Of a stretch of 34,874 nucleotides of DNA, positions 7,013-21,933 are shown piece after piece (position 1 is the first letter of the stretch; the number at the start of each line of letters is the position of its first letter). This DNA is from a bacterium. GTDB taxonomy: Bacteria; Patescibacteriota; Microgenomatia; Levybacterales; UBA12049. A program made the translations under genes and the position numbers. The notes under the pieces were generated by a model. The model saw only the letters and a list, made by a program, of their open reading frames with translations, was not told the origin of the DNA and made no database searches. Location of the stretch: contig JAKAEF010000001.1 in the NCBI GenBank assembly GCA_021820025.1, positions 1 to 34,874 of the forward strand, written 5' to 3'.

Positions 7013-8269
7013 CTACTTTTTGGGAGATATTGTATCCTTTCCCAGGTATTTTTGAAGGACTTCTGGAATAACAATACTTCCATCTTTTTGTTGATAATTT
7101 TCTAAAATTGCAATTAATGTTCTTCCAATAGCAAATGCCGTTCCATTTAATACATTTACATATTTTTTTTCTTGTCCGTCTGTGTATTTAATATTAAGTC
7201 TCTTTGACTGGAAATTAGTAATTGTTGATGCACTGGTTACTTCTCTATATTTATTTTGTCCAGGCATCCATGCTTCTATGTCGTATTTTCTTGCAGTTGG
7301 AAAACCTAAATCTCCAGTGCACATTTTAACAACTTGATATGGAATTTTTAATAGTTGGAATAATTTTTCTTCAAGAGACAATAAATATTCATGCGCTTCG
7401 TCATCTTTTCCTTCTTCTACCATCATAACCATTTCTACTTTATCAAATTGATGGACACGTAAAATTCCTCTGGTATCTTTTCCATAACTTCCCGCTTCCC
7501 GTCTAAATGCTGTAGAAAATCCGGCAATTTTTAAGGGCAATTGTTTTTTATCTACTGTTGTGTCCATATACATTGGTACTAAAGAATGCTCAGCAGTTCC
7601 TACCAATGTTAAACCATCTTTTTCCAAATGAAACATATCTTCTGATCCACCATGTTCCATATATCCCATACCTTTCATTGTTGTTGTTTTAATTAAAACT
7701 GGTGGAACCACTGGAGTAAATCCTTCTTGCAATAATGTATTAAATGCCAACTGAACTAATGCAAATTCTAATAATGCTCCTTCATTTTTTAAATAATTAA
7801 ATCTTGCGCCACTTACTTTTCCTGCAGATTTAACATCTATAATGTCTAATGCTTCACCTAATTCCAAATGATCTTTTGGAGTAAAATCAAATGTTGGAGG
7901 TTCTCCCCACGTTTTTACAACATCGTTTTCTGTATCATTTTTACCAACCTTTACATCTGGTTTTGGAAGATTTGGAATAAGAGACAATTTTTCTGTTAAT
8001 AATTTTTCTGCTTGTTCTAAGTGAAGTGATTCTTTTTCTAAGTCTTCTTTTATTTGTTTCCCTTTTGCAATTTGTTCTGGAGCTGGCTTGCCTTTAATTT
8101 CTTTTGCTTGTGTATTTCTTTCTTCTTGAAGTTTTTGAACTATTTTTTGTGCTTCGTGTCTTTTTTTATCTAACTCAAGAATTTCTGCAACATTAACTGT
8201 TACACCTTTACTTAAAGCTGCCTTAGCAACTTGTTCCGCATTTTCTCTAAAAAATTTTATGTCTATCAT
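7013..8269 (-). CDS. serS: seryl-tRNA synthetase
   Basis: The canonical N-terminus MIDIKFFRENAEQV starts at ATG 8269, in an ATGA overlap with the rdgB stop. The listed 8320 start would overlap rdgB. Class II motifs include FRREAGSYGKDTRGILRVHQFDKVE and GTAFAIGRTLIAILENYQ. Confidence 0.95.
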   Translation of the reverse strand: MIDIKFFRENAEQVAKAALSKGVTVNVAEILELDKKRHEAQKIVQKLQEERNTQAKEIKGKPAPEQIAKGKQIKEDLEKESLHLEQAEKLLTEKLSLIPNLPKPDVKVGKNDTENDVVKTWGEPPTFDFTPKDHLELGEALDIIDVKSAGKVSGARFNYLKNEGALLEFALVQLAFNTLLQEGFTPVVPPVLIKTTTMKGMGYMEHGGSEDMFHLEKDGLTLVGTAEHSLVPMYMDTTVDKKQLPLKIAGFSTAFRREAGSYGKDTRGILRVHQFDKVEMVMMVEEGKDDEAHEYLLSLEEKLFQLLKIPYQVVKMCTGDLGFPTARKYDIEAWMPGQNKYREVTSASTITNFQSKRLNIKYTDGQEKKYVNVLNGTAFAIGRTLIAILENYQQKDGSIVIPEVLQKYLGKDTISPKK

Positions 8270-8877
8270 ATGTGCAGCTGTTCTTTTATTATAGATTTTA
8301 TTGCATTTACTGCCTTCCATCGGTGATTATACTCTTTCATCTCTCTATCGGTCAATTCGCTTTCATGATAGTATTTGTTTATTTCTGGTAAGTAAAAAAA
8401 CGATCTGTAGGGATATCCATGAAGTACTTTTATAAGTGGCTCTTTCGCAATGACTCCTTCAACATGTCCATTTACTTGCCAATAGGAGCCCTCAGGAAGA
8501 GCCAAAGTAATGACTGTTTGAAAAACAGCTTTTCTATTATCCTCTGGTAATTCTTTTGCTACTTTTTTCATTTTTTCAATAATTGCATCATCTTTTCCCT
8601 CTGGTCCTGCCCAGTACCTACTTTGTACCCCAGGTTCATTATTTAAAGCGCTAATTTCAAGACCACCGTCATCACTAATTGCGGGTATTCCTGATAATTT
8701 TGCATAGGTAACAGCTTTTAATCTTGAATTTTCTTCGTAAGTGGTCCCTGTTTCTTCAACATCTTGGGATATTCCTACATCTTTAAGTGAAACTAATTTA
8801 ACAGGAAGATCTTTTAAAAATTCTCCTATCTCTTTTATTTTTCCTTTATTTGTAGTTGCAATAAGCAGCTTTTGCAT
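8266..8877 (-). CDS. rdgB: non-canonical purine NTP pyrophosphatase (RdgB/HAM1)
   Basis: ATG 8877 gives MQKLLIATTNKGKIKEIGEFL, the typical Ham1 N-terminus (T-x-N-x-x-K...E). It lies 4 nt downstream of the HD gene stop. The longer listed ORF overlaps the HD gene. Confidence 0.85.
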   Translation of the reverse strand: MQKLLIATTNKGKIKEIGEFLKDLPVKLVSLKDVGISQDVEETGTTYEENSRLKAVTYAKLSGIPAISDDGGLEISALNNEPGVQSRYWAGPEGKDDAIIEKMKKVAKELPEDNRKAVFQTVITLALPEGSYWQVNGHVEGVIAKEPLIKVLHGYPYRSFFYLPEINKYYHESELTDREMKEYNHRWKAVNAIKSIIKEQLHI

Positions 8878-8881
8878 AGAG

Positions 8882-9460
8882 TTATAAACCAATTTCTGAA
8901 GCAATGCTCTGCATTGCAGAAAGAGTAATGGCAATAAACTTGTCCAGAGGAATTCCTAATTTAGTTTCACATAACTTAATATTTTCTCTATCTACACCTT
9001 TAGAAAAACCAGATGTATTAAATTTTTTAAGTATAAATTCTGGTGTCATAGATGAAAGTTTTTTATCAGGATGTACAAGTGTTGAGGAGACAACCAATCC
9101 AGTCAGTTGATCAACTGTCGTAATTGCCCAATCTAAATCAGATTCCGGTTGTACATGTGTCATTGTGTAATTATGTGCTTTTATTGCATGTGCCATTGGT
9201 TCTGGAATAATATTTGGATTTTCTTCAAACAACAAAATTCCATGCTTATCTAACTTATTTTCTTTTTGTGCAACTTCGTAATCTACATCGTGAAGTAGAC
9301 CGGTAATTCCCCAAAGTTCTTCCGTCTCTGCATGATAATCACTACTGTGCAGATGCTTATAAATTCCTTTCATTGCTGCTTCAGCTGCCAAACAATGTTT
9401 AATAAGATTTTTATTTTGCAAATAAGTTGTTAATAATGTATATGCTTCTTGCCTTGTCAT
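8882..9460 (-). CDS. HD-domain metal-dependent phosphohydrolase
   Basis: 192 aa with H...HD signature residues (HCLAAEAAM ... GLLHDVDYE). Its start overlaps the lysS stop (ATGA at 9457-9460). Confidence 0.7.
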   Translation of the reverse strand: MTRQEAYTLLTTYLQNKNLIKHCLAAEAAMKGIYKHLHSSDYHAETEELWGITGLLHDVDYEVAQKENKLDKHGILLFEENPNIIPEPMAHAIKAHNYTMTHVQPESDLDWAITTVDQLTGLVVSSTLVHPDKKLSSMTPEFILKKFNTSGFSKGVDRENIKLCETKLGIPLDKFIAITLSAMQSIASEIGL

Positions 9461-11721
9461 ATATTTGCCACTACTCCAAAAGATTCAATTGTTCCCCCGC
9501 AATATTTTATTATTTTATCACAAGCTTCTTGTAAGCAAGTTTGTACTTCTTCTGGAGATATTGAATATACTCCATCAACATTAAGTAAAATATTTTTTGT
9601 ATGTAATTGAACTGCTGTTCGTTGTGCATCTCTATAATTAAAATCCATATTATATCCGCCATTTTGATCAAAATATGCAATTTCTTTTTCTGTATATGCT
9701 GTTGGTTTTTCATCTCCTAATAAAAGAATTTCTTCCCCGTTTTTTGCAAAGCGAAGAACGGTTGGAAAAGCAATAGTATCTAAATCAAATGCTCCAACAG
9801 AAACTTTGTGTTTCATAACTGTCATATTATATGCATCAACACATGTATTAATGGTATACAAACCTTTACCTAATGCAATTCTTCGCAAAAGCGCTTCAGG
9901 TGATGGTCTTCGTGAATGCCAATCAACTCCCATTTCTTTATATAATTTTCTATAACTTACTACTTCATCAAATTTTCCCAATTCTTCTGTTGTTAAATTT
10001 TGGATTGATGTTAAAAATGCTTGTTTTTCTTTTTCTAATTCTGGATTTGTTTTTTCAATTTGTACTCCTTTAATAACTGCAACTCCAACAGAGATACTTG
10101 GAAATTTTTCAAAAAGATGTTTATCTATAGAAAATATATTTGGGTTATCAAACCTTGTTATTTGTGATTCTTTCGAACTAGCGGTTGCTGTAGGTAAAGC
10201 ACTTACTTCTAAAAATCTATTTTTTACAAAATCTTTATCTAAAGAAAGAATAAGCCATGCTGCTTTTGGACCACTTGTTTTTCCAAGTAAAGAAAGATAA
10301 ATTGCACCAAAAACTTCTCTTCCAGAAATTCCCATTTCTTTTCCCCATTCGTACATATCAAATTGCAATTTTTCTGCATCGGAATAATTGGCTAATTGAT
10401 TTACAACTTTTTGTAAAAATGCTTTTTGTTTTTCTGATAATTCTTTTGCTTTTTCAGGTAATTTTTCTTGGACAACAAATTTATCTTGTTCTGGTGCATA
10501 TTTGTCTACCCAAACTTTTGCGTATGTTGCCCAATTCTCAAGACCCTGTTTTTTTATTTCTTCCTGCATGTTTGGCATTTGTACCCATTGGGCTAAAACA
10601 GAAAAACGAATACTTGGTGGTTTTTGTACTTCTCCAACTTGAGAAAGTTGAAAGGTTCTTGCTAAATCTGCATCTGATTTTCCAAAATATGCATCTGCAC
10701 ATCTCTGATATTCATCGAATAATTGTGGAATAGTATTAGGATTTGATAAATCAAAATTAATTTCACTATTAATTTTTGTTCTTACCATTAAGAATCGCAA
10801 AACTTGTGGAGGTAAAATCTCTAACATATCAGCAGCCGATGCACCAACACCTTTAGATGTAGACATTTTTTGTTTTCCTAAAATAAACCACTCATATGCC
10901 AATGGAAATGGGACAGGATAATTAAATACTCTATCAGAAATTTTTGATGCAACATCATGAGATCCACCTGCTGTCATATGATCTTTTCCTGCTCCTTCAA
11001 CTGTTACACCAATAACTTTCCATTTTGCGGGCCATTCTATTTTCCACGTTAGTTTTCCTACAATTTCTCCATCTCCACTAAATGGAGACATTTTGCCTAT
11101 AAACCCACAGCCTTTGGTAAATTTAACTTTATTCTCTTCACAGGTAAAAGTAATTTGTTCTCCATCCCAATCGGTTACTGTTGTTGTTGAAACTTTTCCA
11201 CAATTTGTGCAGTATGGTTGAAATGGATACCATTTTTCCGGCATTGTTTTTTTATAAATTTCTTCATAAATTTTTTTAATATCATCTGCTTTATCTAATG
11301 CTTCTTTAATTAACGGATTCATTTTTCCGCTTCTATATAAATCTCCTCCCCAAATAATTTCAGGTTCGCTCCCAATAGCATTAAAAACTTTTTTAAAATC
11401 TTCTGCATAATAATGGGCAAAGCTTTTATATCCTTCTTCTGGAGATGGAACTTTAAAAAGTGGCAAACCTAAATATTTTTCAAATTTTTCTTTTGGCAAA
11501 TACACAGGCAATCCATCCATTGGATCCTGGTCTTCAAAAATATAGGTATATTTTGCATTCACACCTATATCTAATAAACATTTATAAATTAAGTCATGAA
11601 TCACCACACCACGCAAACTCCCCACATGAATTTTGCCAGATGGTGTTTTAGCATCATCCACCCATTCCAGTGGTTTATTTCGTTTTTTTATTTCTAGTGC
11701 AATTTGATCTGCCCAAAACAT
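9457..11721 (-). CDS. lysS: class I lysyl-tRNA synthetase fused to a C-terminal B3/4 domain
   Basis: HIGH-type motif KIHVGSLRG. KMSKS-type motif KMSTSKG. The Cys-rich insertion CTNCGK...CEEN..GCG is typical of class I LysRS. Residues ~527-754 match the free-standing B3/4 family pattern (RRPSPEALLRRIALGKGLYTINTCVDAYNMTVMKHKVSVGAFDLD ... FNYRDAQRT). Confidence 0.9.
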   Translation of the reverse strand: MFWADQIALEIKKRNKPLEWVDDAKTPSGKIHVGSLRGVVIHDLIYKCLLDIGVNAKYTYIFEDQDPMDGLPVYLPKEKFEKYLGLPLFKVPSPEEGYKSFAHYYAEDFKKVFNAIGSEPEIIWGGDLYRSGKMNPLIKEALDKADDIKKIYEEIYKKTMPEKWYPFQPYCTNCGKVSTTTVTDWDGEQITFTCEENKVKFTKGCGFIGKMSPFSGDGEIVGKLTWKIEWPAKWKVIGVTVEGAGKDHMTAGGSHDVASKISDRVFNYPVPFPLAYEWFILGKQKMSTSKGVGASAADMLEILPPQVLRFLMVRTKINSEINFDLSNPNTIPQLFDEYQRCADAYFGKSDADLARTFQLSQVGEVQKPPSIRFSVLAQWVQMPNMQEEIKKQGLENWATYAKVWVDKYAPEQDKFVVQEKLPEKAKELSEKQKAFLQKVVNQLANYSDAEKLQFDMYEWGKEMGISGREVFGAIYLSLLGKTSGPKAAWLILSLDKDFVKNRFLEVSALPTATASSKESQITRFDNPNIFSIDKHLFEKFPSISVGVAVIKGVQIEKTNPELEKEKQAFLTSIQNLTTEELGKFDEVVSYRKLYKEMGVDWHSRRPSPEALLRRIALGKGLYTINTCVDAYNMTVMKHKVSVGAFDLDTIAFPTVLRFAKNGEEILLLGDEKPTAYTEKEIAYFDQNGGYNMDFNYRDAQRTAVQLHTKNILLNVDGVYSISPEEVQTCLQEACDKIIKYCGGTIESFGVVANI

Positions 11722-11780: not shown

Positions 11781-12902
11781 TTACTTCTTCTTGGAAGTGA
11801 CAAAGAGGGTAAGGATTTGTTTATAGATTTCTTCAACAAATAAAACAGAATCTACATTGACCCATTCATTTCTGGTATGCCCGCCATTTCCTATTGGCCC
11901 AAGTGCCAAAACAGGAATATTGAGTCTATTTGCAAAAACATTTTCATCTGCAACAGAAGGTGTATAAATTGGTGTAACGTTGTTTTTTGCCAAAATTTCT
12001 TTTTGTAATATTTTTACAAACCAATGACTAAGCGGCATTTCATAACTTTCTCCATATGGCGTGTCTCTTTTTACCGGTTTTATTTCTATATCAATTTTAT
12101 TTTTTTTGGCAACAGCTTGTACTTTTTTAACAAAATCCGTACTTTTTGTTTTTGGTGTTGTAAGAAGTGAAAACTGAGCAACTGTTCTATCTGGAATTGA
12201 GAATGAATCTGTTATTCCAGAAATTGTATGAAAAACAACATCTGTTTCTCCCAGCAATGCATGTTTTGGCAGAGGAATTTGTTTGATAAGACAAAGTAAT
12301 TCTGCCATTTTTTCTATAGCATTGATTCCTTTTTTACCCTCTGCTGCATGTGCTTTTTTCCCAAACACAGTTAACTCAAACAAAATTCTTCCTTTTCTGC
12401 CAAAAACAGCACTAAATGGTTTTGTTACATCTTTTACTTGTCCACTTTCTGCTGCAACTAAAAATGCCACATCTTTTAAAAGACCAGAAGATACTAAGTC
12501 ATGTGCTCCTTTAGAAATATTTTCCTCATCAACACCGAAAATTATTTTTACAGGAAATTTATTTTTAACAGCATATTCGCCAGTTTGTAAAATTGCAGCA
12601 ATACCGCCTTTCATGTCTTCTGTTCCCAAACCCCATGCTTGTTTTCCTTTCATGGTAATTTTATACGGGTTTTTAATATCACTATCTGCCGGAACAGTAT
12701 CCATATGTCCATAAAACCCAAGGTATTTATCTGCTTTTCCATAGGTTGCAATAATGCTGTTTCGTGTTTTATCTGTTGGAACAAGTTTTACAGAAAATCC
12801 AAGCTTTTTTAAATACTCAGCAAGAAATTTACTAATTGCTGCTTCTTGTGGGAATGGGGAAGGGATTTCGACCAGTGTTTTAAATAAATCTAATGTTTTC
12901 AT
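11781..12902 (-). CDS. M20-family metallo-amidohydrolase (ArgE/DapE/CPG2-like)
   Basis: Metal and catalytic motifs are HMDTVP, GTEDMKGG, GVDEEN and a later H...E. An AAGGA Shine-Dalgarno lies inside the end of the upstream gene. The gap to the ATP-grasp stop is 2 nt. Confidence 0.85.
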   Translation of the reverse strand: MKTLDLFKTLVEIPSPFPQEAAISKFLAEYLKKLGFSVKLVPTDKTRNSIIATYGKADKYLGFYGHMDTVPADSDIKNPYKITMKGKQAWGLGTEDMKGGIAAILQTGEYAVKNKFPVKIIFGVDEENISKGAHDLVSSGLLKDVAFLVAAESGQVKDVTKPFSAVFGRKGRILFELTVFGKKAHAAEGKKGINAIEKMAELLCLIKQIPLPKHALLGETDVVFHTISGITDSFSIPDRTVAQFSLLTTPKTKSTDFVKKVQAVAKKNKIDIEIKPVKRDTPYGESYEMPLSHWFVKILQKEILAKNNVTPIYTPSVADENVFANRLNIPVLALGPIGNGGHTRNEWVNVDSVLFVEEIYKQILTLFVTSKKK

Positions 12903-12904
12903 TA

Positions 12905-14392
12905 TTATCCTTCTACTTGTACTTCAACTGTTCCTAATTGTACTCCGTGTTCTTTTTGCAAACGAGTTAGTAATTCTCGTGCTCTCTCTGGAGTTTGGGC
13001 TAATACTAACACTTTTGCATGAGGAGAGGCAATGACTTGTTCTTGCCCATCTTCATCTTCCCCAACGACTGTTCTTGAAGCAAGAACAAGCACGCCTTCT
13101 TTTGTATCTGGGTTATATACCATATCTGGTCCGATACTTTGTGCAAAATCTTCAAAACTTGCAATACCTCTATTTAGAGTAATATTGGTATTTATCCAGT
13201 GTTTTACTCCTAATTTTCTTGCTGCAAAATCTGCATACGTACTAATAATTGGTCTTGTATTTAATTCCAGTGTTCTTACAATTATTTCACCATCTGGTCT
13301 TCGAATAACAACATAATCAGGTCCTTGAATTCCATGATAGCCATTGATGTCTGCATTGTATCTGGCAGTTGCTCTAATTTGGTCATCAATTAATGCCTGA
13401 ATTGCTGGTTCTGGATAATATCTTCTACTACCAACAAAAGACCCGTTTTCTGTAATTTGTTCAAAATGTCCAAGAATTTCAACACTTCCATCTGCTCGAG
13501 ACACACCATGTGCACTACCTAACACTAATACTTCTCCCAAATTTCTTGCATCTTGTTCAATAATTAAACCTGTTCCATAAGGCGCAAAAGTATCTAGAAA
13601 CCAAGAAGCTTCAATATTTCTTTCTTTTCTTAGCTCAGCAGATTCATCAAAACGTGCATGCATTTCTTTAATTGCTTGTCTAAGCGTTGCAGCTGTTACT
13701 CTCTCAATATGCAAAACTGTATCCCCGCCAGAACCACCTGGTAATTTAACCCAAACGCCATGGGGTAAATTGCCAAACTCTGCAACAAGACCATCAATCG
13801 CGTCTTGTGTAACTTCTCCACTTACTATTCTTCCTGGCATCATATTAATACCAAATTCTGCAGCATGTTCTCGTAAATCTTGTTTGTTATTTGTTAAATC
13901 ACTACTTGGAGTATCTAAAGTTGGCATACCAAGTTGTTCTGCTTGCGCACGTACAGCATCACCAATAATTGTTGGAAGTAAGACAGAAGTTCTGGTATCT
14001 CTTCGCATACTCCCATCATTAACTCGCGCTGCCATTCTTTCCAAAACATCACCATGTGGGAATGGATAAGGATTTGCTAAATCTCCATTTTCAACTCTAT
14101 GTGGCACTTCAATTAATTGACCTGGTTGTAAAATACCAATTTGTTCATAATGCTCTCGTAAACCTCCAAAAAGTTTTGGGGTAATAGCTACTTCTCCAGG
14201 ACCTGCAACAAACAAAGATAAATACCCTAAGTACGCATCACCATACGGTTCTGGAAGAATCGTAAATCTTTCTGGATTAACAAAATTTGCAGCGTGAGTT
14301 GGCACTCGATCAATATGATCTGCGCCATTTCTTTGTCCATTAACCGTTAATGCACCCAATGCGGGTGCTTCTTGTCTTGCTTGCATTGCCAT
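12905..14392 (-). CDS. ATP-grasp family carboxylate-amine ligase with an N-terminal pre-domain, substrate unknown
   Basis: 495 aa. ATP-grasp signatures occur in canonical order: VWVKLPGGSGGDTV (Lys plus Gly-rich loop), LIIEQDA (hinge) and RTLELNTRP (E-x-N Mg site). About 200 aa precede the first motif and about 110 aa follow the last. Composition is K-poor and R-rich. Confidence 0.75.
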   Translation of the reverse strand: MAMQARQEAPALGALTVNGQRNGADHIDRVPTHAANFVNPERFTILPEPYGDAYLGYLSLFVAGPGEVAITPKLFGGLREHYEQIGILQPGQLIEVPHRVENGDLANPYPFPHGDVLERMAARVNDGSMRRDTRTSVLLPTIIGDAVRAQAEQLGMPTLDTPSSDLTNNKQDLREHAAEFGINMMPGRIVSGEVTQDAIDGLVAEFGNLPHGVWVKLPGGSGGDTVLHIERVTAATLRQAIKEMHARFDESAELRKERNIEASWFLDTFAPYGTGLIIEQDARNLGEVLVLGSAHGVSRADGSVEILGHFEQITENGSFVGSRRYYPEPAIQALIDDQIRATARYNADINGYHGIQGPDYVVIRRPDGEIIVRTLELNTRPIISTYADFAARKLGVKHWINTNITLNRGIASFEDFAQSIGPDMVYNPDTKEGVLVLASRTVVGEDEDGQEQVIASPHAKVLVLAQTPERARELLTRLQKEHGVQLGTVEVQVEG

Positions 14393-14424
14393 AAGAATTA
14401 CATGTTTGACTTAAAACCTTGTAA

Positions 14425-14452
14425 ATTATACCTATTTATTGAAGCGTGTCAA
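14425..14452 (-). promoter_or_regulatory. perfect consensus sigma70-type promoter upstream of the ATP-grasp ligase gene
   Basis: The minus strand reads TTGACA (14452-14447), a 16-nt spacer, then TATAAT (14430-14425). The ATG lies 32 nt downstream of the -10 box, at 14392. Confidence 0.6.
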
Positions 14453-14469
14453 CTATTTATAAGAATTTG

Positions 14470-14489
14470 ACAAATTTAACCAAATTTGT
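14470..14489 (-). terminator. AT-rich hairpin after the HDAC-type gene (weak terminator candidate)
   Basis: The minus strand reads ACAAATTT-GGTT-AAATTTGT, a perfect 8-bp stem starting 8 nt after the stop. The downstream tail is only moderately T-rich. Confidence 0.3.
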
Positions 14490-14496
14490 TTGTTTT

Positions 14497-15450
14497 TTAA
14501 CAAAAAGAAAGCCCTTTAACCAAACTCCAAGCTATATCTCCTAAATCTGAGACAAAATACCCTCCTTCTTGGATAACCAAGGTGGGAAGTTGTAATGAGG
14601 CAATTTGCAAACCAATTTCTTTATAAAATGGAATTGTAAGTTTAAATGCTGCAATCGGATCTTTAATGTAGGTATCAAAACCTGCAGAAATAACTAAGAA
14701 ATTTGGATTAAATTTTTTAATATTTTTTATAGCTTGTTGTAATGTTTTTTTATACAAGATTTCTGATGCATCTACAGGAAGTGGATAATTAATATTAAAT
14801 CCGACTCCATCTGCAATTCCCGTTTCTTCTTTAAATCCAGTTATATAAGGATATTTTTCCCTTGGATCTGCATGCAGAGAAACATATAAAATATCATCTC
14901 TGTCATAAAACATTTGTTGAGTTCCATTACCGTGGTGGTAATCAATATCTAAAATTGCAACTTTCCCTTTTGCAGATAAATATTCTGCGGCAACTGCAGC
15001 ATTATTTATATAACAATATCCACCCATATTATATGCACCGGAATGATGTCCAGGAGGTCTGCACAAAGCATATATTAATTTTTCACCGTTTTCTAAAAGT
15101 TCTGCTCCGGTTAATGCAATATCTGCAGATTCTTTTGCTGCAACAAATGTATCTTTTGTCATTGGGGCGTAGGTATCTGTTGTAAAATATGATGCAAAAA
15201 AATTGTCTGTTGGTTTTAAGGATTTAGATTTATTTTTTAAAAATTCTATGTAATTCTTATGATGTACTTTTTCTACATGAGAAATTGGGAATGATTTTGG
15301 TGCAATAAATTCTCCTGCGTTTTCTTGTCTAAATTTTTTAGCAATAATTTCTATTCTCTCTGGAACCTCTGCGTATGGAGCTTGTTGCATGTCATATACT
15401 TCGTATGCTGGATTATGTAATTTGTGTTTGGATGAATAAATAATTTTCAT
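14497..15450 (-). CDS. HDAC-family Zn-dependent deacylase (acetylpolyamine amidohydrolase / AcuC-like)
   Basis: The full set of family motifs is present: CRPPGHH, ILDIDYHHGNGTQ, SAGFDTY and QEGGY. The gap to the upstream orphan gene is 1 nt. Confidence 0.9.
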   Translation of the reverse strand: MKIIYSSKHKLHNPAYEVYDMQQAPYAEVPERIEIIAKKFRQENAGEFIAPKSFPISHVEKVHHKNYIEFLKNKSKSLKPTDNFFASYFTTDTYAPMTKDTFVAAKESADIALTGAELLENGEKLIYALCRPPGHHSGAYNMGGYCYINNAAVAAEYLSAKGKVAILDIDYHHGNGTQQMFYDRDDILYVSLHADPREKYPYITGFKEETGIADGVGFNINYPLPVDASEILYKKTLQQAIKNIKKFNPNFLVISAGFDTYIKDPIAAFKLTIPFYKEIGLQIASLQLPTLVIQEGGYFVSDLGDIAWSLVKGLSFC

Positions 15451-16738: not shown

Positions 16739-17386
16739 ATGATCACAGTACCTGAGGCTACACGCAAAGTTATAGAACGTTCACGCTACCTGGCAGAGGC
16801 TATGAGTAAGGGGCTTATTAATTACTCTTCTTTAGCCCGCTATATTAAGCCAGAACTTGAACAAATGCTTGTTAAAAATGTCAGTGAATCATCTATTATT
16901 ATGGCTTTAAAAAGGCTTGAACCTTATTTTCAACCAAAATATAAACATGTTACTGTTTTCCAAAATCCTCCAGAAATGATTGTGAGATCAAATCTAGTTG
17001 AAATAACTGTTGCGAATTCTGAAGAAATGACAAAAAAATTACCTCAAATTATGGCAGTTTACGCGAATCAGCAAAAATACTACTTTACCATTACAGAAGG
17101 AGTATCAGAAACAACTATTATTGCAAGCCATGATTTGTTTGATAAAATCAAAACAATTTTAAATGGAGAAAAAGTAGTTGAAACATATGTTGATCTTTCT
17201 TCTATCACAATTAGACTCCCTAAAGAAGTTTTAGAATCTCCCGGAATTTTTTACTTTTTCTTAAAAAGTCTGGCATGGGAGGGGATAAATATTATAGAAA
17301 TCGTTTCAACCTATTTGGAATTTACCATAATTTTAGAAGATAAAAACGTAAACAAAGCATTTGCAATTCTTAAATCTCTTTTTTAA
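16739..17386 (+). CDS. ACT-domain protein with a helical N-terminus (putative ligand-sensing regulator)
   Basis: The C-terminal PGIFYFFLKSLAWEGINIIEIVSTYLEFTIILEDKNVNKAFAIL is an ACT-like beta-alpha-beta-beta-alpha-beta unit. The gene is divergent from the orphan/HDAC operon. Confidence 0.6.
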   Translation: MITVPEATRKVIERSRYLAEAMSKGLINYSSLARYIKPELEQMLVKNVSESSIIMALKRLEPYFQPKYKHVTVFQNPPEMIVRSNLVEITVANSEEMTKKLPQIMAVYANQQKYYFTITEGVSETTIIASHDLFDKIKTILNGEKVVETYVDLSSITIRLPKEVLESPGIFYFFLKSLAWEGINIIEIVSTYLEFTIILEDKNVNKAFAILKSLF

Positions 17387-20118
17387 ATTTGTTTTTCTTG
17401 CAATTTTTGGTGTTCTTTCATTAAGCAAAAATCAGAAACAATAGTGACATTATGTTCTCTTGCATAATTTTCTGCTTTTGTATTTCTTACTCCTTCTGGT
17501 AACCAAATTGTTTTTATTCCTTTTTTAATTGCCTCTTCAACATGTGGAAATACTTCTTCTGATCTTCTATAAATTGCAACCATATCTACTGACTTTTCAA
17601 TTTCTAATAAATTTTTATATGCTTTTTCTCCTAACACTTCTCCAATTGCTGGATTAACAGGAACAATAGAAAATCCTTTTGATTGTAAATAAATACCAAC
17701 CTTATGACTGTATCTGTCTGGATCCTGAGAAATTCCAACAATTGCAATTGTTTTTGCTTTTTGCAAAACATTTAATTGGATTGCATCATCTAATGGATTA
17801 TTTTGTATATCAAAATGCCATTCTTCTAATTCTATTGGATCAACTCCATATTCTGTTATGTAAGCCAAATGTTCTTCCAAAGCATTTTTGTAATGATCAA
17901 TTATTTTTTTTGCTTTTTCTAAAGAAATTACTTTTTGTTTTTCCATTTTTTCAATTATTTCTATTGCTAAATGATATCTACTTGTTTTATTTCTCATATG
18001 CATATCAAAAGGTGTTGTTGTCCCACCCAATTCTAAATATCCATGAACAGAAAATCTTTGAGGATTTTTTATGTGGAAAAATATTGACTCCAAATCTTCA
18101 GGATATCCATGATAATTTACAATAACAGGTTTATCGGAAGTAAAATATTTTTCTGCATTTGGAATCTGATTTTTTTGTTGATCTCGTCCTGACAAGCGAA
18201 CAATATTTACAAAGCGAATCTTAATTTCCGGTGCTACAACTTTTACCATTTCTAAAGCAGCCATTGCTTCCTTTGTTACATAGTCCCCAACTCCCGCAAT
18301 AACAATGTCAGGGTTTTCATCACTTGCAAATTCCCAAATTAAAAGTCCGTCTTCCAAAGATTTTTGTGCTTGTTGTAACGTAAGCCATCTTGGTTCTATA
18401 GTTTTACCAGCAACAATTGCATTAATACCATTTGTTGATGCTAATGTTTCGTCTAAAACTGCAAGCATACTATTGTCATCAACAGGGAAATAAACTTTTA
18501 TTTTGTCATCATGTTTTTCTAAAAGTGAACTGACAAATGATGGATTCTGGTGCGTAAATCCATTGTGTTCTTGTCTCCATAAAACTGAAGAAAGCATGTA
18601 ATTTATAGATGCATATGGTCCCCGCCATGAAAGAGTTCTGGCAACTTTTAAAAACTTTTCATATTGATGCGTCATGCTGGAAAAAATTTGTGCAAATGCT
18701 TCATAAGTTGTAAATACAGCATGTCGTCCTGTTAAAATATATCCTTGGGCTAACCCATGTAAATTAGTTTCTGATAACATTTCCATAACTCTTCCATCTT
18801 GTGTCATATCTTTATCGTCTTTACTAATTGGCCAAACAAATGCTCTGCTTGTCTCTTTAAAAACAGTATCCAGTCTGTTGGAGTATGTTTCGTCAGGAGA
18901 CATAAGACGAAAATTATTTTTATTTAATGCAAAAACTTGTTGCAAATATTCACCAGCTTTTTTCATGCTGTTAGATCCCAATTTCCCGGGAACTTCAAAT
19001 TTTGTTTCTAAATTTTCTGTTTTTGGAAGAATTAATTTTTTAAAAAAATTTTTACTGTATGCATGAGGATTATTTCCAATTCTCAACTTTTCTTCAGGAA
19101 GAATATTAAAAATTTCTTTTGAAAATCCTTTATCTTTAGAAAAAACATCATTAAACTTATAAGAAGTTAGCCAATCTTCAATTGCCTCTAACTCATATTC
19201 ATCTTTTCTTGCATTTGGAGCAACAACTTGATGTGCTAAAATATTTCCTTCAATTTTTTTCTTATTTAATTCTTTTATTCCAGTCCATCCTTTTGCTGTC
19301 TGTAAAATAATCATTGGAAATTTAGGAGAAACAATTTTTTTGCCTGAACGCGCATCTTTTTGAATTTTTTTAATTTTTGCTAAACAAGTATCTAATGTTT
19401 TTACCATGTCTTCATAAATATGTTCTCCTGTAACAAAAAATGGTTCATATCCATATCCTTCAAAAAGATCTGATAACTCTTTATTAGACATGCGACCAAA
19501 GATTGTTGGACCAGAAATTTTATAGCCATTCACGTGCAATATAGGCAAAACTGCACCATTTATTGCAGGATCTATTAATTTATTTATATGCCAGCTAGAA
19601 GCAATAGGTCCAGTTTCTGCTTCTCCATCTCCAATCATACAAACAGCTAATAAATCTGGATTATCTAAAACAGCTCCATATGCAGTTCCTAAGGAGTAAC
19701 CTAACTCTCCACCTTCTAAAATTAATCCGGGCGCCTCAGGATTACTGTGACTTGATACACCATATGGCCAACTAAAAATTTTTGAAACCCAGGCAATCCC
19801 TTTTTCATCAAGAGTTGCTTCTTTGTAGTATTTCTCTAGTGTTCCTTCTAAGAATAAATTTGCCTGAAGTGCAGGAAATCCATGACCAGGTCCTAAAACA
19901 AACATGGTAGAAACTTCATGTTTTTTTACAAAATATTGTAAATTTGCATAAACAAAATTTATCCCTGGACATGTTCCCCAATGTCCAAACAAGCGTTGTT
20001 TAATATCTTTGCTAGATAGTTTTTCAGATAATAAATAATTATCTTTTAAATAAATTTGTGTTACTGTCAAATAATTTGCAGCACGAACATACGCTTTAAT
20101 TGCAGAAATATCATTCAT
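17383..20118 (-). CDS. xfp: xylulose-5-P/fructose-6-P phosphoketolase fused to a C-terminal CoA-binding (YccU/CoA_binding_2-like) domain
   Basis: Phosphoketolase motifs GHWGTCPG, EGGELGYSL and GDGEAETGP (ThDP site) are present. Length is 911 aa. The last ~139 aa (KTIAIVGISQDPDRYSHKVGIYLQSKGFSIVPVNP...VDMVAIYRRSE...IKTIWLPEG) match the small Rossmann CoA-binding family. Confidence 0.88.
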   Translation of the reverse strand: MNDISAIKAYVRAANYLTVTQIYLKDNYLLSEKLSSKDIKQRLFGHWGTCPGINFVYANLQYFVKKHEVSTMFVLGPGHGFPALQANLFLEGTLEKYYKEATLDEKGIAWVSKIFSWPYGVSSHSNPEAPGLILEGGELGYSLGTAYGAVLDNPDLLAVCMIGDGEAETGPIASSWHINKLIDPAINGAVLPILHVNGYKISGPTIFGRMSNKELSDLFEGYGYEPFFVTGEHIYEDMVKTLDTCLAKIKKIQKDARSGKKIVSPKFPMIILQTAKGWTGIKELNKKKIEGNILAHQVVAPNARKDEYELEAIEDWLTSYKFNDVFSKDKGFSKEIFNILPEEKLRIGNNPHAYSKNFFKKLILPKTENLETKFEVPGKLGSNSMKKAGEYLQQVFALNKNNFRLMSPDETYSNRLDTVFKETSRAFVWPISKDDKDMTQDGRVMEMLSETNLHGLAQGYILTGRHAVFTTYEAFAQIFSSMTHQYEKFLKVARTLSWRGPYASINYMLSSVLWRQEHNGFTHQNPSFVSSLLEKHDDKIKVYFPVDDNSMLAVLDETLASTNGINAIVAGKTIEPRWLTLQQAQKSLEDGLLIWEFASDENPDIVIAGVGDYVTKEAMAALEMVKVVAPEIKIRFVNIVRLSGRDQQKNQIPNAEKYFTSDKPVIVNYHGYPEDLESIFFHIKNPQRFSVHGYLELGGTTTPFDMHMRNKTSRYHLAIEIIEKMEKQKVISLEKAKKIIDHYKNALEEHLAYITEYGVDPIELEEWHFDIQNNPLDDAIQLNVLQKAKTIAIVGISQDPDRYSHKVGIYLQSKGFSIVPVNPAIGEVLGEKAYKNLLEIEKSVDMVAIYRRSEEVFPHVEEAIKKGIKTIWLPEGVRNTKAENYAREHNVTIVSDFCLMKEHQKLQEKQI

Positions 20119-20130
20119 AATTTATTTTCT

Positions 20131-21885
20131 TTAATAATCCTCAAGAGTAGAGGTATCACCTTCAGGAAGACCTAATTCCCTAGATTTTAATAAGCGGCGC
20201 ATAATTTTGCCCGAGCGGGTTTTAGGAAGTTTATCTATAAATTCTATTTCCCGTGGATATGCATGGCCTGCCAAATGTTGTTTTACATACGCCATAATTC
20301 TCTTTTTTGTTTCTTCATTTTTTTCAACGCCTGGTTTTACAACAACAAAGGCTTTAATAATTTCTCCACGTAACTCATCTGGTTTTCCAATAACTCCTGC
20401 TTCTATAACATCTTCATGTTCGACAAGTGCACTTTCAACTTCAAACGGACCTACACGTTCTCCAGATGTTTTTATAACATCATCTGCTCGTCCAACAAAC
20501 CAAAAATACCCATCTTTATCTTTAAATGCTTTATCTCCAGACAAATACCATCCATTTCTAAAGTATGAATCAAATTTTTCTTTATTTCCCCAAATTTGTT
20601 TCATTAAAGAATAAATTGTTTCCGGCTTTAGTGCTAAATGTCCTTCTTCTCCAACAGGTACTTCTTTCCCATCTTCATCAATTACTGCTGCGATAACACC
20701 TGGGAGTGGCTTTCCCATACTGCCTGGCCTAACATCCATAACAGAATAATTTGTTACGGTTATTGATCCTTGTTCTGTTTGCCACCACGTATCATGGAAT
20801 GGTAATCCAAATGCTTCTAACCCCCACCAAATTGCTTCAGGATTTAATGGTTCACCAACACTGGCCAAAAATCGAAGATTTGATAAGTTATATTCCTTTG
20901 GAGAAACAGGAGATCCCATAAGCATTCTAATTGCAGTTGGGGCTGTATACCAAACAGTTACTTGGTAATCTTGCAAAACTTTGTACCAATTTTCGGGAGA
21001 AAATCTTCCTTCAAAAATTACAGAAGTTGCTCCCAAACCAAACGGACCTAATGCTCCATAGACAACTCCTGTTACCCAGCCTAAATCCGCTGTACACCAA
21101 TAAATATCATCTTCGTGTACATCTAAAACAAATTTTGTTGTTACCATTGCCTGTACAATATCTCCATGTGCATGCACAACACCCTTTGGTTTTCCTGTTG
21201 TTCCAGAGGTATAGAGCATGTAAGAAAGATCTTCTTTTTGCATATGAGCAATTGCAAAATCTGCAGAAGCTTTTTCCATTTCATGTTTATAATAAATAAG
21301 ATTTTCTCCTTTGGGTTGATCAACAGATCCTCTTTCTACAATAATTACTTTTTCAAGTGCAGGTAAATCTTTCCAGATTTTTTGAATTCTTGGAAAAAGA
21401 GTTGCATTGGTAACAACAACCTTTGCTCCACTATCTAATAAGCGATCCATTAATGCCATTTCCATAAATGCGGAGAATAATGTTCCTGCAATTGCACCAA
21501 GTTTTAAGATGCCAAAAAAAACAACTAATCGCTCAGGAATTGTTGGTAAGAAAATAAAAACTCTATCTCCTTTTTGTACTCCATGCAAATCTAAAACATT
21601 AGCAAATTTATTTGTTAAATCTTTTAATTGGCCATAGGTATATGTTTCTTTTTCACCAGTTGCACTTTCAAATAAAAGTGCATTTTTAGAAGCACTTTTT
21701 CCGATAGCATGTCTGTCAATTGCAATATAAGAAGCATTTAAAGTTCCGTCTTCAAAAAAATCTAAATATTCTTTTTCTGCTTTTTTCCATGTAAACTCTT
21801 TATAGGTTTTTTCGTAATCAGAAAGGTTTGGTTTTTTAACAAATTTTTTGGGGTCTTTGTGAATTATATTTGCACCTGTATTCAT
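20131..21885 (-). CDS. acs: AMP-forming acetyl-CoA synthetase / acyl-CoA synthetase
   Basis: The AMP-binding motif is YTSGTTGKPKGV, and the A10 motif is LPKTRSGKIMRR. I prefer the start at ATG 21885. The listed TTG start at 21933 lies inside a TTGACA -35 box. Confidence 0.88.
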   Translation of the reverse strand: MNTGANIIHKDPKKFVKKPNLSDYEKTYKEFTWKKAEKEYLDFFEDGTLNASYIAIDRHAIGKSASKNALLFESATGEKETYTYGQLKDLTNKFANVLDLHGVQKGDRVFIFLPTIPERLVVFFGILKLGAIAGTLFSAFMEMALMDRLLDSGAKVVVTNATLFPRIQKIWKDLPALEKVIIVERGSVDQPKGENLIYYKHEMEKASADFAIAHMQKEDLSYMLYTSGTTGKPKGVVHAHGDIVQAMVTTKFVLDVHEDDIYWCTADLGWVTGVVYGALGPFGLGATSVIFEGRFSPENWYKVLQDYQVTVWYTAPTAIRMLMGSPVSPKEYNLSNLRFLASVGEPLNPEAIWWGLEAFGLPFHDTWWQTEQGSITVTNYSVMDVRPGSMGKPLPGVIAAVIDEDGKEVPVGEEGHLALKPETIYSLMKQIWGNKEKFDSYFRNGWYLSGDKAFKDKDGYFWFVGRADDVIKTSGERVGPFEVESALVEHEDVIEAGVIGKPDELRGEIIKAFVVVKPGVEKNEETKKRIMAYVKQHLAGHAYPREIEFIDKLPKTRSGKIMRRLLKSRELGLPEGDTSTLEDY

Positions 21886-21904
21886 AATTTGGTAGATCGT
21901 GGTT

Positions 21905-21933
21905 ATAGTAACAAGGTTTCTTTTATCTGTCAA
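21905..21933 (-). promoter_or_regulatory. promoter for the acs-xfp transcription unit
   Basis: The minus strand reads TTGACA (21933-21928), 17 nt, then TACTAT (21910-21905). The ATG lies 19 nt further on, at 21885. Confidence 0.45.

Follow-up and report, generated by a model that had tools for sequence, protein, structure and literature searches.

A CtdA-like module with predicted deacylase activity fused to class I lysyl-tRNA synthetase in Patescibacteria

The editing modules of ProRS, AlaRS and ThrRS each consist of one deacylase fold that occurs both free and fused to the synthetase whose mistakes it removes and that has been gained and lost among lineages (reviewed in PMC7373986). We know of none of these modules on lysyl-tRNA synthetase (LysRS), which together with ArgRS is, to our knowledge, a standard example of a synthetase without a separate editing domain and which is, as far as we know, the sole synthetase to exist in two unrelated structural classes. 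Here we describe a stretch of 34,874 nucleotides from an uncultured member of the Patescibacteriota (Levybacterales, UBA12049; contig JAKAEF010000001.1 of assembly GCA_021820025.1, positions 1 to 34,874), referred to below as the window, in which one gene joins a class I LysRS to a C-terminal B3/4 module. [quoted passage not shown] Arg, Thr, Met and other amino acids are also wrongly attached to tRNALys by this enzyme, which does not deacylate the resulting products (PMC5370406). The premise of the original prediction for this locus, that class I LysRS has no known dedicated editing domain, fits this literature (PMC7373986, PMC5370406).

The closest characterised relative of the module is CtdA, a stand-alone enzyme that hydrolyses canavanyl-tRNAArg and spares Arg-tRNAArg (PMC10018355, PMC12449066). 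Mutagenesis of CtdA has shown that Y104, N105, E118 and E191 are required, and N105 is the sole residue that it has in common with the editing sites of bacterial PheRS (bioRxiv 10.1101/2024.11.30.626143). For the related CtdA-2 group, the specificity is ‘yet to be determined’ according to the authors (PMC12449066). The CtdA papers treat stand-alone proteins only and mention no fusions to LysRS or ArgRS (PMC10018355, PMC12449066, bioRxiv 10.1101/2024.11.30.626143). A search of the open-access PMC and bioRxiv literature likewise yielded no description of a LysRS- or ArgRS-B3/4 fusion, a scope that leaves its absence from the literature unproven.

A complete class I LysRS joined to a B3/4 module

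The gene and its parts, all on the minus strand of the window, are as follows.

9457..11721, minus strand: lysS-B3/4 fusion gene, 754 amino acids plus stop, ATG start
10207..11721, minus strand: class I LysRS body, residues 1-505 (TIGR00467, PF01921, PF19269; predicted local distance difference test (pLDDT) mostly >90)
10135..10206, minus strand: S/T-rich variable linker, residues 506-529, predicted disordered
9460..10134, minus strand: CtdA-like B3/B4 deacylase module (predicted activity), residues 530-754, 225 residues (AlphaFold2, Foldseek, HMMER)
9496-9954, minus strand: Pfam B3_4 core of the module, residues 590-742 (PF03483)
9826..9831, minus strand: codons of Y631-N632, counterparts of CtdA Y104-N105 (HMMER alignment to 9f7e/9mkl)

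Residues 1-505 are a complete class I LysRS. On the NCBIfam model lysS_arch (TIGR00467) they score 361.8 bits (cut-off 147.55), with residues 1-503 covering model positions 1-511 of 515, and Pfam places tRNA-synt_1f (PF01921) at residues 2-361 (E 2.3e-94) and Anticodon_2 (PF19269) at residues 417-502. The body is laid out as a Rossmann catalytic domain with HVGS (residues 32-35) and KMSTS (residues 285-289), followed by a helical anticodon-binding domain, and K285, M286, S289 and K290 show no variation among 54 homologues. At the other end of the protein, B3_4 (PF03483) is matched with 81.2 bits (cut-off 29.3, E 8.8e-23), residues 590-742 aligning to model positions 2-174 of 174, and a six-frame search of the genome gives the module a B3_4 score of 85.5 bits. 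These Pfam and NCBIfam searches bear out the predicted fusion of a LysRS core to B3/4. The motifs quoted in the original prediction (HVGSLRG, KMSTSKG, RRPSPEALLRRI, LYTINTCVDAYN, SVGAFDLD and FNYRDAQRT) are all found in the translation, as is the S/T-rich linker ALPTATASSKESQ after the LysRS core, and the C-terminal region is not an anticodon-binding extension.

An exhaustive HMMER search with residues 508-754 as query against 1.8 billion representative proteins returned 2001 matches. [quoted passage not shown]

The AlphaFold2 model of the module alone has a pLDDT of 92.9 and a predicted template-modelling score (pTM) of 0.89. The full-length model resolves into two confident bodies with a mean pLDDT of 90.8, yet its pTM is 0.65, and linker residues 512-518 fall below a pLDDT of 50. 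In the family alignment 49% of the module columns are at least 90% conserved, and no linker column is. Relative to the orthologue from the same genus, the ratio of nonsynonymous to synonymous substitution rates (dN/dS) is 0.065 for the core, 0.087 for the module and 0.34 for the linker. The low pTM of the full-length model, the disordered and unconserved linker and its high dN/dS indicate that the module is tethered to the LysRS body rather than docked on it, and its own low dN/dS shows that purifying selection constrains the module to about the same degree as the essential synthetase. Mean pairwise identity is 71% for the module and 55% for the core, a comparison biased upward for the module because the set was picked by module similarity.

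In the genome from which the window comes (~1.0 Mb, 86% complete), the B3_4 copies are the fused lysS and PheT only. No class II LysRS was found in it, the best TIGR00499 match scoring 66 bits (cut-off 427.6), although at this completeness the absence is unproven. The fused enzyme is therefore taken to be the housekeeping LysRS of the cell. Public annotation calls LysRS-B3/4 proteins just ‘lysine--tRNA ligase’.

Module identity, partner synthetases and distribution

The predicted kinship of the module with the PheRS editing domain stands, with the refinement from both sequence and Foldseek comparison that the module is CtdA-type and not PheRS-type; CtdA itself has since been proven to edit in trans. 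Its best sequence matches in the PDB are the CtdA structures 9f7e and 9mkl, with PheRS beta subunits next (HMMER), and the same CtdA structures are the best Foldseek matches, with a template-modelling (TM) score of 0.76-0.82 and 232-234 aligned columns against chains of 226-231 residues. The whole fold is matched, including the helical insert specific to CtdA. PheRS B3/B4 domains are a poorer Foldseek match (TMq 0.55-0.60, root-mean-square deviation about 6 Å, probability 1.0), and the NCBIfam model pheT_bact matches residues 604-681 weakly (E 7.6e-5). With the B3/B4 domain of PheRS beta (PDB 3pco, 6oz5, 1pys) the module shares the core fold, a weak sequence similarity over the N-x-V-D-x-x-N helix and the placement of a putative editing domain in cis on a synthetase. 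However, of the PheRS editing-site residues, which in E. coli include R244, N254, H265, G318 and E334, only the Asn is shared according to the CtdA papers, and the PheRS editing domain is internal and rigidly packed in a heterotetramer, whereas the window module is terminal and borne on a disordered linker. The ProRS modules (INS/YbaK/ProXp), the AlaRS editing domain with AlaX and ThrRS-ed follow the same evolutionary logic, but their folds are unrelated to that of the module, and a further difference is that here one module clade serves two non-homologous synthetases of the same amino acid.

Comparison with CtdA suggests that the module retains the catalytic framework of a proven deacylase around a different, fixed pocket. 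The Tyr-Asn pair of this nearest characterised enzyme is present, contrary to the possibility that catalytic residues might be absent: Y631 and N632 are invariant in 54 fusion proteins and are common to CtdA and the ArgRS-fused modules described below. The framework residues S607, E609, R613/R614, N625, V628, D629, G643, N695, R697 and T702 are also common to CtdA and are invariant or nearly so; the VGG-motif glycine is kept, as are the framework elements R-x-x-x-T and N-x-R. The pocket is where the two proteins part. CtdA E118 is replaced by F645, C166 by N691, R168 by D693, W171 by Y696, Q173 by D698, I189 by N714 and, conservatively, E191 by D716, and the VGGEN motif of CtdA reads VGAFD in the module. 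Within the LysRS-linked clade, F645, D646, N691, D693, Y696, D698, N714 and D716 are fixed or nearly fixed. As judged from these residues, the pocket would present three to four carboxylates together with aromatics and so would suit a cationic side chain.

Both CtdA and the module are linked to a basic amino acid. They differ in that identity is ~17%, that the canavanine-binding residues E118, C166, Q173 and E191 are replaced and that the module groups apart from CtdA, in a clade with good support; CtdA is free-standing and linked to arginine and canavanine, whereas the module is fused to a synthetase and linked to LysRS. Because its substrate-binding residues and its phylogenetic placement depart from those of the CtdA family, the module is not a CtdA orthologue, and it may belong to or adjoin the uncharacterised CtdA-2 group (PMC12449066).

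Several matches whose modules are ~70% identical bear PF00152 and PF01336 in place of PF01921, and these class II partners are true LysRS, scoring above the curated cut-offs for the bacterial class II enzyme. In a tree of 73 modules, the LysRS-linked clade (support 100/96) comprises 28 rows, namely 13 fusions to class I LysRS (LysRS1), 12 to class II LysRS (LysRS2) and 3 free-standing modules. LysRS1 and LysRS2 fusions are interleaved in this clade, forcing at least 7 switches. Since the two LysRS classes are non-homologous and share only their substrates, the function of the module is tied to lysine and tRNALys and not to the scaffold. Some LysRS2-B3/4 proteins (P0250, P0223) carry an extra C-terminal DUF2000 (PF09391). 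CtdA itself belongs to a second clade (100/97), together with nine modules on the N-terminus of ArgRS (P0283, P0293, P0299, P0311, P0322, P0330, P0347, P0357 and P0370, the first with two B3_4 stretches). The ArgRS-fused modules have the CtdA pocket signature E645, C691, R693, W696, E/Q698 and E716, and as CtdA edits a product of ArgRS these fusions are a parallel case. Among the database clusters of free-standing and ArgRS-fused relatives, none carries a name.

A survey of taxonomic spread places the fusion mostly in Patescibacteria, with modules of the same clade also on class II LysRS. A word-indexed search limited to long proteins gave 793 clusters, nearly all of them ~750-residue LysRS1-B3/4 proteins of Patescibacteria (Levy-, Roizman-, Gottesman- and Daviesbacteria and Microgenomates). 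A collection of species-representative genomes contains 224 loci that encode the module; locus counts here and below refer to the best 80 of these 224, of which 75 have the module on LysRS1, 5 on LysRS2 and none free-standing. The module is patchily distributed, occurring in 20 of the 401 genomes of a sample of the phylum, and the family and order of the window are a mosaic of fused LysRS1, plain LysRS1 of ~508 residues and genomes without LysRS1. A maximum-likelihood tree of 39 LysRS1 cores has fused and plain enzymes interleaved, including as sister pairs (fused G417 with plain G402; fused G404 with plain G439/G431), and its starred branches force at least six gains or losses. Such gain and loss among close relatives implies that the module is accessory and evolutionarily mobile and not a structural need of the synthetase. 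The patchy and repeatedly lost distribution would, by analogy, fit a niche-dependent protective function like that of CtdA. Many contigs with LysRS-B3/4 of Microgenomates type bear record labels such as ‘uncultured Gammaproteobacteria’, ‘Methylomirabilota’, ‘Eisenbacteria’ or ‘Acidiferrales’ (among them L028, L032, L033, L038, L039, L041 and L076). These are probably mislabelled automated submissions of metagenome-assembled genomes, and we do not count them as spread beyond Patescibacteria.

Proposed function of the module and its alternatives

On balance, we consider it probable that the tethered module performs post-transfer editing on tRNALys. In the mechanism that we envisage, the LysRS body would charge tRNALys and the tethered module would sample the 3′ end of the tRNA, either before release or on re-binding at high local concentration, and could act in cis or in trans. 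Its pocket would admit a near-cognate basic amino acid and exclude lysine, while Tyr631-Asn632 would position the ester and an attacking water for hydrolysis, along the lines suggested for CtdA and bacterial PheRS. The tether would confine the deacylase to tRNALys, from which it could then remove an amino acid that properly belongs on a different tRNA without attacking Arg-tRNAArg. One concrete candidate substrate is Arg-tRNALys, because E. coli LysRS makes this product but is unable to remove it. Further candidates are ornithine, thialysine, homoarginine and canavanine, and such non-proteinogenic analogues are equally possible.

The acidic and aromatic character of the pocket (D646, D693, D698, D716, F645 and Y696) would also suit lysine itself, and this residue set, together with the association of the module with both LysRS classes and the occurrence in P0002 and P0003 of two B3/4 modules, diverged and in tandem, which hints at more than one substrate, is compatible with a module that deacylates correct Lys-tRNA for control of its pool, for example in starvation, or lysine attached to a wrong tRNA (Arg/Asn). 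We regard this as unlikely. A deacylase of the cognate product on the sole LysRS would run a futile, ATP-consuming cycle, and the characterised members of the superfamily, PheRS B3/B4 and CtdA, all spare the cognate aminoacyl-tRNA (PMC10018355, PMC12449066). As for lysine on a wrong tRNA, the tether on LysRS brings the module near tRNALys and not near other tRNAs.

Next in order, and also improbable in our judgement, is a non-catalytic appendage that raises the affinity for tRNALys in the manner of Trbp111/EMAPII-type domains. Synthetases commonly bear appended tRNA-binding domains, for which a flexible tether is equally suitable, B3/4 domains contact tRNA in PheRS, and an existing annotation reads ‘DNA/RNA-binding domain of Phe-tRNA-synthetase-like protein’. 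However, the highest conservation lies in the catalytic Tyr-Asn pair and in buried polar and acidic residues and forms no basic surface, and the nearest characterised relative is an enzyme. The repeated loss of the module among relatives with similar LysRS cores argues that it is dispensable for charging. In addition, P0255 has a separate, dedicated tRNA_bind domain besides the module, which argues that the module is not simply a tRNA-binding appendage.

Several observations weigh against the reading of the module as a post-transfer editing domain. Many close relatives live without it, and class I LysRS is reportedly more discriminating than class II, so that it is not evident why it would require editing. 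The residue mapping comes from a sequence alignment to CtdA fragments at ~17% identity, and because CtdA E118, C166 and Q173 are replaced, activity is not transferable by homology. No link to lysS or to amino acids was found near the free-standing Lys-type modules P0385, P0391 and P0394, whose neighbourhoods are unrelated and unlike those of the candidate phyla radiation. A strict rule that pairs pocket type with partner synthetase has to be rejected, since three LysRS fusions, one C-terminal (P0326) and two N-terminal (P0302 and P0344), carry modules of the CtdA/Arg type; pocket type and partner are thus strongly correlated, though with exceptions. The CtdA-type modules on these three LysRS also imply that LysRS has recruited members of the superfamily several times independently.

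Neighbouring genes and implications

The further features of the window discussed here, and the loci of the HD-LysRS fusion family used for comparison, are listed below.

8882..9460, minus strand: predicted HD-superfamily metal hydrolase gene, 192 amino acids (family alignment, PDB profile matches)
8266..8934, minus strand: rdgB/Ham1 non-canonical purine NTP pyrophosphatase (PF01725 E 2.1e-42, NF011397 E 2.9e-48)
11781..12902, minus strand: ArgE/DapE-family M20 deacylase (PF01546/PF07687), separated by a 59-nt gap upstream of lysS
14425..14452, minus strand: sigma-70 perfect consensus TTGACA-16-TATAAT, about 30 nt upstream of a 495-residue open reading frame
L048:1929-4808, L076:1917-4850 and L024:878-2986: loci of the HD-LysRS fusion family

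The genes following lysS encode an HD hydrolase and RdgB, as originally stated. The ATG of the HD gene overlaps the lysS stop as ATGA. The HD protein alone matches Pfam HD with E 0.12 and lies under every NCBIfam and Pfam cut-off, and in its family the ligands of the H..HD..H..D pattern (H22, H57, D58, H96 and D117) are invariant. When the family profile is compared with the PDB, each of its top five matches is a symmetrical Ap4A hydrolase of YqeK type. The HD protein resembles YqeK (PDB 8jja, 8wmy, 2ogi, 2o08) in its length of ~190 residues and its HDIG-type H..HD..H..D metal ligands, but the similarity is weak, with E 4e-4 over about 45 residues. A search with the YqeK model TIGR00488 gave no match for the window HD protein and weak matches for 4 of 20 family members (best E 5e-4). 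A paralogue that is 43% identical lies elsewhere in the genome (G000:C35:3173-3712).

The role of the HD gene as an operon neighbour holds, with the refinement that in the closest relatives HD is fused in frame to LysRS-B3/4. Such LysRS1-B3/4-HD triple fusions of 960-986 residues occur in L048, L062 and L076, which in the core tree are the closest relatives of the window protein outside its genus (100/100), and an HD domain also follows B3/4 in P0237 and P0255. The recurrent architectures are LysRS1-B3/4-HD, LysRS2-tRNA_bind-B3/4-HD and LysRS2-HD without B3/4 (G415). As a marker of fused lysS, adjacency of HD was rejected as a rule, since the HD gene lies beside fused lysS in 18 of the 80 loci and in the family of the window mostly elsewhere in the genome. 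The in-frame fusions nonetheless show a functional link of HD to LysRS, and the link is real but independent of the module. The translationally coupled hydrolase would probably clear a second by-product of LysRS, with Ap4A or a related dinucleotide as the leading guess. We put forward an Ap4A-type clean-up role purely as a hypothesis, and for class I LysRS it is weakened because this enzyme needs tRNA for activation (PMC7373986).

That module and HD protein together handle a non-tRNA by-product of LysRS (such as lysyl-adenylate, an aminoacyl ester or a dinucleotide like Ap4A), with B3/4 as a small-molecule esterase or regulatory ligand sensor, is very improbable. In its favour, fusion or coupling of HD to LysRS recurs both where the module is present and where it is absent, the best solved HD relatives are the YqeK Ap4A hydrolases, class II LysRS is a classical Ap4A producer (PMC5370406) and the house-cleaning gene rdgB lies at most 1.5 kb downstream of fused lysS in 45 of the 80 loci, but every characterised enzyme with a B3/B4 fold acts on aminoacyl-tRNA, the scarcity of adjacent HD genes argues that the module is not HD-dependent, and the tRNA requirement of class I LysRS makes Ap4A production doubtful.

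The rdgB open reading frame as listed has a TTG start and overlaps the HD gene by 53 nt. Family matches begin at residues 20-23, so translation probably starts from the ATG at nt 8877 (residue 20), just past the HD stop. Upstream of lysS on the same strand, three genes (11781-15450, minus strand) encode the M20 deacylase, the 495-residue protein and an HDAC-family deacetylase (PF00850, E 2e-71). An M20 gene is found upstream of fused lysS in 5 of the 80 loci, including two with class II fusions. The M20-lysS-rdgB neighbourhood occurs with both LysRS classes. The M20 protein matches TIGR01910 (ArgE/DapE) and related models, and assignments to DapE, ArgE or LysK were rejected because it is below all equivalog cut-offs. 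The 495-residue protein is without a family assignment, with a faint hint of PGM1_C / ATP-grasp peptide ligase (E 0.024), and its gene heads the same-strand string that ends at rdgB. The sigma-70 site ahead of this gene is a pattern match only, the total of promoter-like sites in the region being not above chance. It is speculative that the M20, 495-residue and HDAC genes form an amino-acid (lysine/ornithine) salvage cluster that feeds LysRS. No T-box, lysine riboswitch or tRNA gene was found in the window. Further away, at 17383-20118 (minus strand), a phosphoketolase of 911 residues (918 bits over residues 2-769) has a C-terminal extension of ~130 residues that resembles the CoA-binding N-terminus of the alpha subunit of acetate--CoA ligase (ADP-forming), and its gene adjoins that of an AMP-forming acetyl-CoA synthetase (20131-21933).

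The presence of the module on both kinds of LysRS probably gives lysine decoding a hitherto undescribed error-correction step, and the fact that a single module serves the two classes argues strongly, on comparative grounds, for a role connected with lysine and tRNALys. A wider proposal, which we advance tentatively and would not yet call probable, is that CtdA-superfamily deacylases have repeatedly been recruited as post-transfer editing domains by LysRS of both classes, through several independent N- and C-terminal fusions, and by ArgRS. The clade of the window would then be the first proofreading domain for tRNALys, the signature F/Y645, D693, Y696, D698 and D716 would denote a new specificity, CtdA-2-like free proteins would gain a function, and in some lineages, with a YqeK-like HD domain, a three-activity LysRS could charge, proofread and clear a by-product. 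On the comparative evidence, a branch of the CtdA superfamily that was uncharacterised becomes a testable hypothesis with a defined enzyme, catalytic residues and a short list of candidate substrates. If true, this would extend the known quality-control repertoire of the synthetases and would show how genome-reduced, scavenging Patescibacteria shield translation from amino-acid analogues of the host or environment.

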